From Acidobacteriota bacterium (GTDB lineage Bacteria > Acidobacteriota > UBA890 > WLXD01): a DNA stretch of 64,000 nt. Of this stretch, positions 12,221-17,496 are shown one piece after another (the first letter of the stretch is position 1; each line of letters starts with the position of its first letter). Below the pieces are notes generated by a model. The model was not told where the DNA came from. It did not search any database and worked only from the letters and a program-made list of their open reading frames with translations. Position numbers and translations under genes: made by a program. The stretch is from positions 2,688,001-2,752,000 of the forward strand of contig CBDBHB010000009.1 of assembly GCA_965205505.1 (NCBI GenBank), read 5' to 3'.

Positions 12221-13786
12221 ATGATCAAGGTTCTCGACACCGCCGCCATGCAAGCGTGTGATCGCGCTGCGATCGACGACTACGGCGTCCGGGGCGACCT
12301 GCTGATGGAAAACGCCGGGTTGCAAGTGGTCGAGGCGCTGACGAGCCACTTCGGCGATCAGCCGCCAGCGAGCGTCGCGGTTTTGTGCGGGCGCGGCAAC
12401 AACGGCGGCGACGGGTTCGTCGTGGCACGCCACCTCCACAACACGGGCGGCGAGGTGGTGGTGTACCTGTTCGGCGAGGGATCGGTGCTGCGTGATGGCG
12501 CCGCCACCAACCATCGAATTGCGGTGACCCTCGGCGTGCCGGTGGTCGAGGTACACAACGAGGAGGCATGGGGCCCGCTGGCAGACGACCTGGCGGAGTT
12601 CGACTGCATCGTGGATGCGCTGCTGGGAACCGGGATCGAAAGCGCCCCTCGGGGTGCCATCGCGGCCGCTATCGAGAGCATCAACGCATCGGATGTTCCC
12701 GTGGTTGCGGTGGACCTGCCGAGCGGGCTGTTGGCCGATACGGGCGCTATTCAGGGCGCTGTCGTGGAGGCGGCCTTGACGGTTGCTCTGGGCGCGCCGA
12801 AGGTCTGCCACCTCTTGGCCCCGGCGAGCGAGACGTGTGGCGAGGTGGTGGTGGTGGACATCGGCCTCCCCACCGCGGTCATCGAAGCGGCGCGGGCCGC
12901 ATTGTGGCGACCGACTCGGGAGGATTGTGCGGCGGGATTGCCGCTCCGCTGGTCCGATAGCCACAAGGGGGATTATGGCCGCGTACTTGTCATCGGCGGG
13001 GCTCCGGGTACCGCCGGCGCCGCGGTGCTGGCGGCGCGCGGTGCGCTGCGGGGTGGGGGAGGTCTGGTGCACGTGCTGTGCCCCGAGACCGCCTATTTGC
13101 CTATTGCCTGCCAGCTTACGGAGGCGCTTGTGCATGTCGCCCCGGCCGGAGCCAGCGGTGGCCTCGGTGCAGACGCCGTGCTGGCGGCGCTCGAGCGTGC
13201 CGAGGCAGCCGACGCCGTGGCGATCGGGCCGGGTATCGGCACCGCTACCGAGACGGTCGCGTTGGTACGGCAGCTAGCGACGGAATGTGCCCGCCCCATG
13301 GTGATCGATGCCGATGGCCTCAACGCGCTCGTCGGCGTCCTTGAAGTGTTGACAGAAGCGGTCGGGCCGCGCGTGCTCACTCCGCATCCTGGCGAGGCGG
13401 CGCGGCTGCTGGGAGTCGATGTCGCCGACGTACAGTCGGATCGAGTCGGCGCAGCACGCGAGCTTACCGAGGCGTCCGGGGCGGTGGTGCTGCTTAAGGG
13501 GCATCGCTCTCTCACCGTCGAGCCCCAACAGGCGCCGGTCGTCAACCTGAGCGGCAATCCGGGGATGGCTACCGGCGGAACGGGCGATGTGTTGACTGGC
13601 CTGATCGCCGCTCTCATCGCGCAGGGGTTGCGCCCGGGGGCGGCCGCCTGGACCGGGGCCTGGCTGCATGGGCTGGCGGGCGATCTCGCAGCACAGCGCC
13701 TCGGGCAGACGGGCTGCCTGGCTTCGGATCTCGTCGACGAGATCCCTGACGCTTTCCGGCGCGTCGCCGAGGGGGCGGAGCCTTGA
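12221..13786 (+). CDS. nnr: Bifunctional NAD(P)H-hydrate epimerase/dehydratase NnrE-NnrD
   Basis: LMENAG, CGRGNNGGDG, VDALLGTG, DSHKGDYGRV, LTPHPGEAARL, MATGGTGDVL. Confidence 0.94.
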   Translation: MIKVLDTAAMQACDRAAIDDYGVRGDLLMENAGLQVVEALTSHFGDQPPASVAVLCGRGNNGGDGFVVARHLHNTGGEVVVYLFGEGSVLRDGAATNHRIAVTLGVPVVEVHNEEAWGPLADDLAEFDCIVDALLGTGIESAPRGAIAAAIESINASDVPVVAVDLPSGLLADTGAIQGAVVEAALTVALGAPKVCHLLAPASETCGEVVVVDIGLPTAVIEAARAALWRPTREDCAAGLPLRWSDSHKGDYGRVLVIGGAPGTAGAAVLAARGALRGGGGLVHVLCPETAYLPIACQLTEALVHVAPAGASGGLGADAVLAALERAEAADAVAIGPGIGTATETVALVRQLATECARPMVIDADGLNALVGVLEVLTEAVGPRVLTPHPGEAARLLGVDVADVQSDRVGAARELTEASGAVVLLKGHRSLTVEPQQAPVVNLSGNPGMATGGTGDVLTGLIAALIAQGLRPGAAAWTGAWLHGLAGDLAAQRLGQTGCLASDLVDEIPDAFRRVAEGAEP

Positions 13787-14232
13787 GCCGCACACGCGAC
13801 TACGTGACCCATAGCGCCGAGGAGACCGAGCATGTCGGCGCCGGTCTCGGTCGCCGGCTTCGCGGTGGCGAGGTGATCCTGATCTTTGGCCCGCTCGGCG
13901 CCGGTAAGACGCAGCTGGTGCGCGGCATCGCGGCCGGGCTAGGGCTCGATCCCGGCCAGGTGTCGAGCCCGTCGTACGCGCTCATCAACGAGTACACCGG
14001 ACGGCGAACGCTCTACCATGTAGATCTATACCGGCTGAGTACAGCCGACCTCCCAGACTTGGGTCTAGAGGACCTCTACGGTCGGGGGTGCGTGGTGGTG
14101 ATCGAGTGGGCCGAGCGTCTAGAGGAGGCTGGATGGGATCTGGGCTCGTCGATCATCGTCGAGGTCGATCATCACCCTGACCGCTCCGACGTGCGCATTA
14201 TCGGCGTCGACGAAGCGGTCTCGGGCGGCTAG
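13783..14232 (+). CDS. tsaE: tRNA threonylcarbamoyladenosine biosynthesis ATPase TsaE
   Basis: GPLGAGKT, VSSPSY, HVDLYRL, IEWAE; directly after nnr. Confidence 0.94.
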   Translation: MSRTRDYVTHSAEETEHVGAGLGRRLRGGEVILIFGPLGAGKTQLVRGIAAGLGLDPGQVSSPSYALINEYTGRRTLYHVDLYRLSTADLPDLGLEDLYGRGCVVVIEWAERLEEAGWDLGSSIIVEVDHHPDRSDVRIIGVDEAVSGG

Positions 14233-14334
14233 ATGAGATGAGATGAGAAGGCCAACCTCCTGAACGCAGTAGCCTGACGGCTCTGCAAACGTTTCTTCAA
14301 ACGTAACGGGCTCGAAGCCCAAGGAGGTTGGCCG

Positions 14335-15377
14335 ATGAGGAGTGTAACGATTGGACTGGACGTAAGCGACCGGTACAGCCGTATGTGCGTGCTCGACAGT
14401 AAGGGCAGGGTGATGGAGGAAGGGCGGGTGAGGACGAGCCCGGAGGGGCTGGCGAGGCGGTTCGGGTGCGAGGAGCCCGCTCGAGTAGTGCTGGAGGTTG
14501 GAACGCACTCGCCGTGGATGAGTGAGCAGTTGAAGCAACTGGGTCATGAGGTGCTGGTGGCTAACCCGAGGCGGCTGAAGCTGATCTATGGCGAGCACGG
14601 ACCGACCGGTTGGATGCCGAGCACCTGGCACGAGTGGGCAGAATGGACCCAAAGCTGCTTAAGACGGTGCAGCATCGAGGCAGACAAGCGCGAGCGGATC
14701 TAGCCGTGATTCGGAGCCGAGATGCTCTGGTAAAGAGCTGCACGCAGTTGGTGAGCCATGTGCGTGGTGCGGTCAAGTCGGCCGGTTGTCGTATTCCCAG
14801 GTGCTCGACGCCGGCGTTCGCGCGCACCGCGCCAGAGCACATACCGGAGCGGCTCAAGGGAGCGCTCGAGCCGGTGCTTGAAACGATCGCCATGCTGACG
14901 GGCAACATCCAGCAATACGAGCGTCAGATCGTGCAGCTGTGCCAGGGGCGATACCCGGAGACACAGCAGCTCCAGCAAGTGGCCGGGGTCGGAGCTCTGA
15001 CCGCACTGGCGTATGTGCTGACGCTCGAGGAGCCGGAGCGGTTCAATACCTCCAGAGCCGTGGGCCCGTACCTGGGACTGAGACCGAAGAAACGGCAGTC
15101 GGGGGACAAGGACCCTGCGCTACGAATAACCAAGGCGGGCGACAAAATGCTCCGACGCCTGTTGGTGGGCTCGGCGCATTACATCCTGGGCCCCTTCGGG
15201 CCCGATACTGAGCTCAGACGCTGGGGGCTCAAGCTGGCCGGACGCGGTGGTCCTCATGGCAACAAAAAGGCAGCAGTTGCTGTCGCCCGTAAGCTCGCCG
15301 TTGTGCTGCACCGACTGTGGCTGAGTGGAGACGAGTACGAACCGTTGCGCGCACCTGTAGAGGTTTCAGCAGCATGA
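14335..15377 (+). pseudogene. IS110/IS1111 DEDD transposase (recombinase), frameshifted near 14600
   Basis: IGLDVS, VVLEVG, [K]TDRLDAEHLAR, GVGALTALAY, YLGLRP..QSG, ITKAGD, AVARKL; two frames (14335-14703, 14610-15377). Confidence 0.9.
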
Positions 15378-15610
15378 ACTAACCCGCAACCAGGAGGTCG
15401 GTAGGGCGACGCGACCCAACGGTTATCGATCTGACCGCCCGGTCCGGGCGACTGCGAAGGTCACTACGAGCTTCGAGCTCGGCAGCTAGATTGCAGCGCC
15501 TCGAATCGGGACGGACCCCAGAATGCACCGGACGACCTGAATCCTCGTCCACCAGAGTGCGAATAGGAGCATGGCGTGCAGATCGATTCTTCGCTGGGCA
15601 CCACATTGCC
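15378..15610 (+). ncRNA. Putative bridge/seekRNA in the IS right non-coding end (boundaries approximate)
   Basis: Stem GGCG-A-CTGCGA/TTGCAG-CGCC enclosing GGTCACTA + hairpin CGAGC-TTCGA-GCTCG + GCAGCTAG, which match both strands of the empty site GGCGGCTAGTGGCC. Confidence 0.7.
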
Positions 15611-15637
15611 CTTGACCGAACTAGGCCTTCTCATAGA

Positions 15638-15772
15638 AGTGGCCTGTAACAGATGGATATCGGCGTTGCGCCTCGTCGATGATGCCTATTGCATCGCCTT
15701 CCTCGCCGCGCCTTGATCTCACCCGCAAATCCCTTCTGCGATATGCGACGATCATCTGTTACAGGCCACTAG
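15638..15772. repeat. Family-B MITE-like element (single module), left end split by the IS1111 insertion
   Basis: IRs (CT)AGTGGCCTGTAACAGATG / CATCTGTTACAGGCCACTAG; internal TCGATGATG-N7-CATCGCC..CCTTG; followed by duplicated AGGCCACTAG (15773-15782). Confidence 0.8.
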
Positions 15773-15849
15773 AGGCCACTAGGCTGGGCTGTCGAGGTCT
15801 CTCTTGTGAGCTTCGTCGCGAGCATGTCGCGCCCCAGCTGCAGCGCCTC

Positions 15850-17496
15850 TCACTTGCTGTCCGAGAAGACGGGCGCCAGTAGATTGTCGACGGGTGCGTG
15901 GTCGTCGGTCAGCACCAACCCACCGCCGCGCTGCAGCACTGTCGCCATCTCTCCACCTAGGTGATCGGCCTCGGCCCAGGCAAACACGTGGCCCCAGGCG
16001 TCCGGAACGTTCTCTTTAGGTCCGATCTCCAGGATCGGTAAGGCTCGTCGAGAGCTCACCACGATGAAAGTGTCGCGCTCGTCCGTGGGTCCATCCGGGT
16101 CGCCAGCGAACACGTAGACGAACGGGAACGTCAATCGCACGGTGCCTACATAAGCACCCAAGAACCGGCCCAGACCCTCACGATAGATATCGATGATGTT
16201 GATCATGTAGACGCCGTCGGGCGTCATTACTTCGGCCAGGCGTTCGTTGAAGCCCCGTGTGGTCAGGTGGTAGGGCACGCCGAGGTCGTTGAACGCGTCT
16301 CCGTATACGAAGTCGAATTGATGTGGGTGCGTCACGCGTCGATTCTGCCGCCGCAGATCGTCGATGTAATTGCGAGCGTCCAGCGTGTGCGTCCGGATGC
16401 GGGTAGCATCGTCGGCGGGCAGGCCCAGAGCGACCTGAGCGGCACGCTTGACTGCCGGGTCGATCTCGGCGACGTCGATATCTGCTGCTGCGAAACGCGT
16501 ATCGAGATAGCGCGGAAACGTAAAACCACCACCGCCGATGAACAGCGCGCGCAAGGGCTCGTCAGTGCTTACCAAGTGGTGGGTCACCGCGGCGTAGACG
16601 GTCTCATAGCCGTAGTCCAGCTGCGTGATGTCGTCCATGTTCACGTAGCTGTGCACGAGATGATCCAGCGCCAACACGCGGGTGTTGTCGAATTCCTCGG
16701 CGTCATAGATCTCGATCGTGAAGTAGCTGCTCTCGTCCTGATAGTGAAGATGGTCGGTAGCGAAGCGTAGGCCCAAGAAATGGCCCCAGCGCTCGCTCCA
16801 CGCCCACGGCGCCACGGTTAGGGCAGAGATCAGAAACAGCAACGATAGCCAGACCACGAAGAACGAAGCAGGGCTGCGGCGCAAACCCCGTCCCGCTAGC
16901 AGGCCCATTGTCCCGAGGCCCGCGGCGATGACGCAGACGATCGTCTTGGTGCCGAAGGCATCGATCAACACGTAGCCGGTAAGGAACGTGCCGAGGATGC
17001 TTCCGGAGGCACCGCTCGCGTACAAGGTTCCAACCGTCGCGCCCACTTCACGTCGCGCTCCGAGAGCCAGCTTGGCTGCCACGGGCGAGATCGTGCCCAT
17101 GATGGTTGCCGGGGCAAGAAACGTGAGGGCGACGTTGCGAAGGATCCAGAGCGGCCAAGAGATGACCTCCGGCCTCTCCCAAGACCCCATCCAGTCGACG
17201 ACGAACAGCACGGAAAGACTCGACATCGAGGCCAGCAGGAACAAGGTCGTCAACAGGGCGCGGGGCGGATACAGGTCAGCAAGCTTGCCGCCGACGTAGT
17301 TGCCCACGGCGATCCCTGCCAGCACCACTCCGATTACCGCCGTCCAGGTGTAGAGCGATACGCCCAGATGCTGTGCTACGAGGCGCGCCGCGACGATCTC
17401 CAGCGTCATGATGAACGCCGAGCTGGTGAACACGACGAGGCTCGCACCCGCGATGGCACGACGCGACGAGGTGTGAGTGGAGTCTGGAGGCGGCAT
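15850..17496 (-). CDS. Fused membrane (MFS-like) / spermidine synthase-like methyltransferase
   Basis: LEIVAARL..HLGVSLYTW TM region; LFIGGGGFTFPR, EIDP, DAFND, LTDDHAPVD. Confidence 0.85.
   Translation of the reverse strand: MPPPDSTHTSSRRAIAGASLVVFTSSAFIMTLEIVAARLVAQHLGVSLYTWTAVIGVVLAGIAVGNYVGGKLADLYPPRALLTTLFLLASMSSLSVLFVVDWMGSWERPEVISWPLWILRNVALTFLAPATIMGTISPVAAKLALGARREVGATVGTLYASGASGSILGTFLTGYVLIDAFGTKTIVCVIAAGLGTMGLLAGRGLRRSPASFFVVWLSLLFLISALTVAPWAWSERWGHFLGLRFATDHLHYQDESSYFTIEIYDAEEFDNTRVLALDHLVHSYVNMDDITQLDYGYETVYAAVTHHLVSTDEPLRALFIGGGGFTFPRYLDTRFAAADIDVAEIDPAVKRAAQVALGLPADDATRIRTHTLDARNYIDDLRRQNRRVTHPHQFDFVYGDAFNDLGVPYHLTTRGFNERLAEVMTPDGVYMINIIDIYREGLGRFLGAYVGTVRLTFPFVYVFAGDPDGPTDERDTFIVVSSRRALPILEIGPKENVPDAWGHVFAWAEADHLGGEMATVLQRGGGLVLTDDHAPVDNLLAPVFSDSK

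Follow-up and report, generated by a model that had tools for sequence, protein, structure and literature searches.

What decides where a mobile element inserts, when it has come to lie exactly between the stop codon of one gene and the tip of another mobile element? The question is raised by a 64,000-nt stretch of the genome of an Acidobacteriota bacterium (assembly GCA_965205505.1, contig CBDBHB010000009.1, positions 2,688,001 to 2,752,000, forward strand). We call this whole stretch the window and give positions in its own numbering. In it an insertion sequence (IS) of the IS1111 group, IS110 family, separates the end of tsaE from a miniature inverted-repeat transposable element (MITE). We hold it very probable, at roughly 0.9, that this element is of IS1111 type and encodes a guide RNA in its downstream non-coding end, and that two strands of a loop in this RNA pair with both strands of the target. 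The features at the two junctions are the following.

14230 to 14232, plus strand: tsaE stop codon TAG; its AG (14231-14232) represents, on the left, the core dinucleotide that target and element have in common.
14233 to 15639, plus strand: the insertion sequence of the IS1111 group (IS110 family), 1407 bp including one AG; one of 28 copies in the genome.
14231 to 14242, plus strand: left terminal extension AGATG-AGATG-AG, 12 nt (7 nt in other copies).
14243 to 14253, plus strand: left subterminal inverted repeat ATGAGAAGGCC; the same repeat is found at 48 of 80 homologous loci.
15624 to 15634, plus strand: right subterminal inverted repeat GGCCTTCTCAT, forming the inverted-repeat pair with 14243-14253.
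15635 to 15639, plus strand: right terminal extension AGAAG, 5 nt; its last AG (15638-15639) is the right copy of the core.
15640 to 15768, no strand assigned: 129-bp MITE with terminal inverted repeats TGGCCTGTAACAGATG…, followed on the far side by CTAG (15769-15772); the right half of the IS target is formed by its left terminus.
15763 to 15782, minus strand: a tandem pair of empty CTAGTGGCCT sites, at the opposite end of this MITE.

The tsaE open reading frame (13783-14232; Pfam TsaE, E 1.4e-33) ends in the TAG at 14230-14232, and this stop codon survives because its AG is the core dinucleotide, which is present at both junctions (14231-14232 and 15638-15639). In-silico excision of the element together with one AG yielded GGCGGCTAG followed by TGGCCTGTAACAGATG. 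A first-pass annotation of the window, made by a model from the letters and their open reading frames, had claimed that excision restores the tsaE stop fused to an intact MITE end. The junction bears this out, as do the perfect 16-18-nt terminal inverted repeats of the MITE whose terminus forms the right flank. The subterminal inverted repeats of the element itself, ATGAGAAGGCC and GGCCTTCTCAT, are 11 nt long and 100% complementary. Non-coding sequence extends for 102 nt before the transposase ATG (14233-14334) and for 262 nt after its stop codon (15378-15639), and it is in the latter region that the predicted RNA and its target loop are found.

15425 to 15587, plus strand: predicted bridge or seek RNA, about 163 nt, closed by a long-range helix (15425-15439 with 15573-15587).
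15445 to 15457, plus strand: target-loop stem, 5' strand, with the invariant GACUGCG.
15458 to 15466, plus strand: right target guide AGGUCACUA, which pairs with T-AG-TGGCCT on the top strand, one pair being a U:G wobble.
15467 to 15481, plus strand: spacer hairpin CGAGCU-UCG-AGCUCG between the guides, variable in length and sequence among relatives.
15483 to 15489, plus strand: left target guide CAGCUAG, lying within the stretch GGCAGCUAG (15481-15489) of the first-pass annotation.
15491 to 15503, plus strand: target-loop stem, 3' strand, with the invariant GCAGC.

Structure and homology together argue that 15425-15587 encodes a structured RNA of approximately 160 nt. The left guide has the sequence of the top strand of the left flank plus AG, and would thus pair with the bottom strand. 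The minimum-free-energy fold of 15430-15520 (-42.2 kcal/mol, z -2.9; stability reached by 2 of 200 shuffles) yields an internal loop with AGGUCACUA (15458-15466) on one side and GCAGCUAGA (15482-15490) on the other, between the stem CUGCGA/UUGCAG and the hairpin 15467-15481. It thereby reproduces the loop of the first-pass annotation, all of whose elements were recovered at the positions it gave: GGTCACTA at 15459-15466, the hairpin CGAGC/GCTCG at 15467-15481, GGCAGCTAG at 15481-15489 and the stem 15447-15457/15491-15500. The pairing it proposed between the right guide and the top strand, with a single U:G wobble, was also found. Chance agreement in the window copy was estimated from mononucleotide shuffles of the 262-nt non-coding end (n = 5000). 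Both guide matches at the right spacing occurred in 15 shuffles and the right guide match alone in 146. A left guide match of at least 6/7 occurred in 2205, so that the left match is unremarkable taken alone. The main weight of the guide evidence lies in the other copies and in the relatives.

More than 8000 homologous proteins were found, the nearest with 92% identity. A scan of species-representative genomes gave 80 loci with transposases 49-60% identical to that of the element, spanning Gemmatimonadota, Actinomycetota, Acidobacteriota, Chloroflexota, Eremiobacterota and others. At 48 of these 80 loci the repeats and ends are laid out in the same way, with a subterminal repeat ATGAGAAGG…/…CCTTCTCAT, a left extension AGATG(G/A)(G/A) and a right extension (G/A)GAAG. 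The scaffold GACUGCG…GCAGC was present in 46 of the 48, which together with the window copy makes 47 elements. It runs through GACUGCG, 1-3 nt, variable sequence that closes with CU, a hairpin that also varies, further variable sequence closing with AG, another 3 nt, and GCAGC.

In the covariation test, on 36 non-redundant elements, only the scaffold was used to set the guides, which were then compared with 21-nt windows lying outside the repeats. Right guides scored on average 7.40 of 8 against their own flank and 5.42 against the flanks of other elements; left guides scored 6.35 of 7 and 4.40, respectively. The observed sum of own-flank scores was reached in none of 10,000 permutations for either guide (0/10,000 each). 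The own flank was unbeaten by that of any other element for 29 of the 36 right guides and 27 of the 36 left guides. Covariation of both guides with their flanks, which the first-pass annotation had offered as a check on its reading, is therefore strongly positive. Well over twenty distinct targets are represented among these 36 relatives, and the left guide typically matches five flank bases and the core. In the two relatives with an AA core (L111 and L120), AA or UU stands at every corresponding place: in both guides, in the donor motif and in the left end.

The RNA itself is conserved in structure as well. An alignment of 40 RNAs gave a 16-pair consensus in three helices, namely the long-range closing helix, the target-loop stem and an inner stem UGCAC/GUGCG. 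Compensatory changes were found in 8 of the 16 pairs, and 96.4% of cells were paired. The covariation score was reached by none of 500 shuffles, and sliding one strand reduced pairing to 19-51%.

A further homologue, the nearest found in a genome (G011:C1:3908161-3911885; L032, L038), belongs to a bacterium of the same taxonomic order, has 63-68% identity, and lies in two pieces about 2.7 kb apart; it has probably been interrupted by another insertion.

Within the 5.98-Mb genome, BLAST returned 33 matches to the element: 27 full-length copies, one cut by a contig end, and 4-5 fragments. The full-length copies are 98.4-100% identical, and 15385-15503 is identical in all 27. All 29 left junctions read flank-CT (one TT) and then AGATGAGATGAGAAGGCC; all 31 right junctions read …CTCATAGAAG and then TGGCCT (30) or TGACCT (1), the next base being G in 27 of the 31. 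There are 28 unique left flanks, of which 27 end in CT and one in TT, and beyond these two bases they vary. The overall pattern is N-CT/AG…AG/TGGCCT. Because this junction sequence is shared across copies, the genomic target is CT-AG-TGGCCT, with the AG retained on both sides. In right flanks that are not MITE ends, conservation stops at the T of TGGCCT, exactly where the pairing of A15458 ends. The target GCRGCT-AG-TGRCC put forward in the first-pass annotation is too specific on the left. Likewise, its match of GGCAGCUAG to the left flank at 8 of 9 positions is true of the window copy; over the 28 left flanks only CT and AG are shared, which makes the 8/9 match a property of this one copy.

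Most insertions land at MITE ends, since CTAG and TGGCCTG are the flank and the terminus of a resident MITE family. MITE termini account for 24 of the 31 right junctions, in agreement with the earlier proposal of insertion at CTAG MITE ends, which that annotation supposed to be safe sites. The remaining 7 right flanks do not fit the MITE-end pattern and have only TGGCCT or TGACCT in common. The genome contains the 13-nt terminus TGGCCTGTAACAG 82 times, with 0.1 expected. Exact TGGCCTGTAACAG termini form 20 inverted pairs, 129-614 bp apart with a mode of 270 bp, and 10 of the 20 have CTAG on both sides. Among 102 ends matching TGGCCTG[TA][AG]NCAG, 65 are preceded by CTAG and empty, 24 are preceded by the element and 13 by variant tetramers. 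Unoccupied CTAGTGGCCT sites number 109 (13 expected). In these empty sites A stands just before CTAG in 60 of 109, and C one base further out in 56 of 109. A second MITE family, with TGGCCTGAGTCAG termini, also serves as a target of the element.

The shared right flank could in principle reflect common descent, if the element had spread passively with the MITE, by segmental duplication or by homologous recombination. Some flanks do recur: one left flank is found at two copies with different right flanks, and the right flank TGGCCTAACGCC… at two copies with different left flanks. These new combinations show recombination between copies. Passive spread is hard to reconcile with 28 unique left flanks, with right flanks drawn from at least two MITE families and 7 non-matching sequences, and with 65 like MITE ends that are CTAG-preceded and empty. 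Moreover, a search of four genomes of the same genus did not find the element. We therefore regard this explanation as scarcely credible. The recurring flanks are of interest in their own right. In this genome (G000) the pairs C6:423090 / C6:513833 and C6:13156 / C6:189957 show the same left flank with different right flanks, and the reverse. These swaps suggest that homologous recombination between copies has rearranged the genome.

Passive spread being set aside, insertion guided by the RNA leaves the question of how much each arm of the guide contributes. It is conceivable that the right guide and the core alone do the guiding, at a target of about 10 bp (CT-AG-TGGCCT), the left strand beyond CUAG being idle and the 8/9 match at tsaE coincidental. 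Such an account fits the finding that CT is the sole invariant in the 28 unique left flanks, and the frequency with which shuffled sequence gives a left match. It also fits a comparison of occupied with empty CTAGTGGCCT sites, in which the mean match to GGCAGCT was 3.96/7 in occupied and 3.57/7 in empty sites (Mann-Whitney p = 0.058), a result that counts as well among the points against a two-armed guide. At single positions the same comparison speaks for the left strand: the guide base A at -4 was present in 10 of 28 occupied and 12 of 109 empty sites (p = 0.003), and G at -3 in 11 of 28 and 21 of 109 (p = 0.04). The usual C at -4 and A at -3 were less frequent in occupied than in empty sites. 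The left guides of the relatives, with their clear preference for cognate over non-cognate flanks, point in the same direction. We lean against an idle left strand while giving it appreciable weight; it refines the reading of a guide RNA that pairs with both target strands and does not replace it.

These data suggest that the left guide exerts a modest bias and nothing stronger. Most of the specificity resides in the core and the right guide; outside CUAG, the left guide adds no more than a bias. A more tentative idea, which we think rather unlikely, is that this is a natural system with a relaxed left arm, in which the right guide and the 4-nt CUAG suffice and the rest biases which of the approximately 140 CTAGTGGCCT sites are filled. 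If so, the 28 occupied and 109 empty sites would form a natural data set on the pairing that each IS1111 guide arm needs. A preprint on 'half-match' (10.64898/2026.08.31.748434) deals with the donor loop versus the target loop, not the left versus the right arm, and was not used.

Downstream of the target loop, the RNA contains a second module that would recognise the ends of the element.

15513 to 15523, plus strand: 5' strand of the donor module, GGACCCCAGAA, a candidate right-donor guide.
15524 to 15561, plus strand: donor inner stem UGCAC / GUGCG, which encloses the hairpin 15530-15550; one pair is changed from C-G to G-C, compensatory, in five relatives.
15562 to 15569, plus strand: candidate left-donor guide AAUAGGAG, corresponding to the right end CATAGAAG with one G-for-A difference.

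Directly 3' of GUGCG, the motif AU(G/A)GAA(G/A) is identical to the right-end heptamer in 37 of 41 elements, in the classes ATGGAAG (31), ATAGAAG (4) and ATAGAAA (2). The 5' strand of the module, GGACCCCAACA, varies with the left ends: CUCA goes with AGATGAG in five relatives and CCCA with AGATGGG in most, a rule broken by the window copy and by L079. A target loop followed by a candidate donor motif that mirrors the right end would correspond to the published layout of bridge RNAs, with a target part and a donor part. Passages of PMC11208160 report donor nucleotides in a multi-loop closed by a long-range helix for many IS1111 orthologues, and AAUAGGAG likewise falls in a multi-loop module.

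Several observations weigh against a guide RNA that reads both target strands and the element's own ends. The donor motif of the window copy, AUAGGAG, agrees with its right end ATAGAAG at 6/7 positions, and its strand CCCCAGAA pairs badly with the left end AGATGAG. Among the 36 relatives, the right guide scored below 7/8 against its own flank in four (L072, L075, L103, L117), and the left guide at or below 5.5/7 in six (L062, L069, L100, L117, L122, L132). Kin inherit guides and targets together, so that the 36 elements are not independent events. The guide analysis covers the loci with an ATGAG-type repeat found by script and leaves out 32 of the 80, which have a different repeat, a contig end or another end type. 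A scan of 13500-16500 against Rfam 15, with E up to 10, gave no bridge-RNA family and only a chance snoRNA-like match. The RNA is unobserved: contigs of two metatranscriptome runs cover 14236-15768 but not the flanking genes. As these runs consist of contigs, with neither ends nor strand given, and as a 28-copy repeat could assemble from contaminating DNA, this coverage was counted neither for nor against transcription. No circle junction or empty-site joint was present among four sequencing runs.

An unseen RNA with no match in Rfam would also suit a protein that reads the target DNA itself, for instance a MITE terminus, the loop matches being coincidental or vestigial. To this may be added that 7 of the 16 consensus pairs never vary; the scaffold stems are invariant and thus provide no covariation evidence of their own. 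Against such a protein, the guides of the relatives differ from one another and track their own flanks on both sides, and transposases 50-60% identical occupy quite different sequences. In addition, RNA guidance has been proven experimentally for other family members (PMC11187229 and PMC11208160). Direct reading by the protein is accordingly very improbable in our view, and we return to guidance by RNA as the explanation for the choice of site.

The coding part of the element places it in the same family, and also shows why the copy in the window could not move by itself.

14335 to 14703, plus strand: transposase fragment 1, N-terminal and DEDD/RuvC-like, out of frame after residue 88; PF01548 DEDD_Tnp_IS110.
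14599 to 14600, plus strand: 4-nt deletion relative to intact copies, causing the frameshift; common to 12 of 27 full-length copies.
14610 to 15377, plus strand: transposase fragment 2, coiled-coil and C-terminal Transposase_20 (PF02371); contains GLRPKKRQSG.

The open reading frame pieces in the window scored 26.6 bits with PF01548 (a truncated piece, below the cut-off of 29) and 63 bits with PF02371, and both domains are annotated on the intact protein P0001. The intact 348-aa sister protein matched NCBIfam NF033542, 'IS110 family RNA-guided transposase', with 205.5 bits (cut-off 140). IS1111 elements are described in PMC11187229 by a transposase of 330-350 aa with the motif GL-P----S/TG, and in PMC11208160 by subterminal inverted repeats of 7-17 bp. 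The intact protein falls within this length range and its GLRPKKRQSG fits GL-P----SG; the element has 11-bp subterminal repeats with short terminal extensions. The longer non-coding region lies downstream of the transposase gene, and insertion is sequence-specific, leaving the core dinucleotide at either side and duplicating nothing else. The IS1111-type identity given in the first-pass annotation is upheld by the NF033542 match, the motif, the subterminal repeats and the downstream non-coding end. D9, E54, D92, D95, S257 and G258 are invariant or nearly so among 21 homologues, and the 4-nt deletion shifts the frame after residue 88, before D92 and D95 are reached. Among solved structures, ISCro4 (9t56) and IS621 (8wt6) come closest, at E about 1e-8, a weak match (6e-8) that spans only residues 188-339; the transposase is thus only remotely related to family members with solved structures.

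The open 348-aa gene is kept in 11 copies, to which the window copy does not belong. The frame-breaking 4-nt deletion (alignment columns 369-372) is found in the window copy and 11 others, and 5 more copies have a 1-nt deletion elsewhere. The copy in the window is a transposase-dead member of an active element, and with its transposase frameshifted it can at most supply RNA and ends. That the identical 4-nt deletion is found at twelve separate loci means either that dead copies were mobilised in trans by intact ones or that the deletion spread by gene conversion.

Homology with IS621 and ISEc11 suggests the following course of insertion. The recombinase (DEDD/serine) supplied by intact sister copies would bind the RNA. 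The circularised element, with the junction …CATAGA-AG-ATGAG… (…CTCATAGA-AG-ATGAG…), would be brought to a CT-AG-TGGCCT site, the donor part of the RNA contributing AAUAGGAG, which mirrors the right end CATAGA-AG. Strand exchange at AG would then leave AG on both sides and no other duplication.

Two further features were noted near the ends of the element.

14250 to 14333, plus strand: left-end hairpin GGCCAACCTCCT / AGGAGGTTGGCC, which pairs the AGGAGG upstream of the transposase ATG (14335).
15612 to 15617, plus strand: TTGACC, an outward-facing -35-like hexamer (TTGACA in relatives).

The left-end hairpin (14250-14261 with 14322-14333) is a perfect 12 bp. It looks like an attenuating structure that would block translation from transcripts reading through from outside the element. 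Some 18 nt from the right tip the hexamer TTGAC(C/A) is conserved; it faces outward and stands in the same place in L061-L139. In a circularised element GAAGAT, half of it from the left end, would fall at the -10 distance from it, and the two may form a circle-junction promoter. A sigma-70 promoter scan of the linear copy (14150-15800) returned no sites, for the RNA or for the transposase. The left end of the window copy differs from all others in having one extra 5-nt unit, where other copies have AGATG-AG before the inverted repeat. There are three AGATG units in 14231-14245 and two in all other copies, and AG recurs every 5 nt. Replication slippage could account for the extra unit, as could strand exchange in a shifted register.

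Experiments published in 2024 showed that IS110 and IS1111 elements reach their targets under RNA guidance (passages of PMC11187229 and PMC11208160). In the IS1111 seekRNAs of the former, the segment complementary to the top strand lies 5' of the one for the bottom strand, and they overlap where insertion occurs. The element described here resembles ISEc11, ISPa11, ISKpn4 and ISPst6, as presented in PMC11187229, in its DEDD transposase of 330-350 aa with GL-P----SG, its subterminal repeats and its downstream non-coding region. It also has the same guide order with overlap, and in that group, too, each element or set of elements has its own target. It differs from them in its target, CT-AG-TGGCCT at a MITE terminus, and in being known from sequence alone. 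With IS621 (PMC11208160) it shares a predicted two-part RNA, with target-binding and candidate donor-binding guides, and a core on both sides after insertion. Unlike IS621, it has its RNA 3' rather than 5' of the gene, long inverted repeats (11 bp), and AG as the core on the transposase strand. The core of IS621 is CT.

Landing in the repeat of another small mobile or repetitive element is also familiar from the family. IS4321 and IS5075 reportedly insert into the terminal repeats of the Tn21 family. IS1111 in Coxiella burnetii inserts into QMITE2 (part of PMC10969869), and ISPpu9, of the ISPpu9/ISPa11 type, into repetitive extragenic palindromic (REP) sequences (part of PMC12288879). Compared with these cases, a different MITE family is involved here, with TGGCCTGTAACAG… termini flanked by CTAG, and insertion occurs exactly at the boundary between flank and terminus, not inside a palindrome.

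RNA guidance and the insertion of IS1111 into a MITE have thus both been published, and no new mechanism is presented here. The element belongs to a very large, uncharacterised subfamily with the subterminal inverted repeat ATGAGAAGGCC, whose guides can be read from an invariant scaffold; this subfamily may already stand among the predicted bridge RNAs of the two 2024 papers. Both halves of the target are readable in the RNA of the element, and dozens of relatives, from six phyla or more, can be read in the same manner. The scaffold GACUGCG … GCAGC, followed by UGCAC … GUGCG-AU(G/A)GAAG, allows target prediction for a large and mostly metagenomic IS1111 subfamily, and the occupied and empty sites within one genome could calibrate the tolerance of the left guide. 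Understanding of the mechanism is unchanged; the locus provides a clean natural illustration of RNA-guided transposition.

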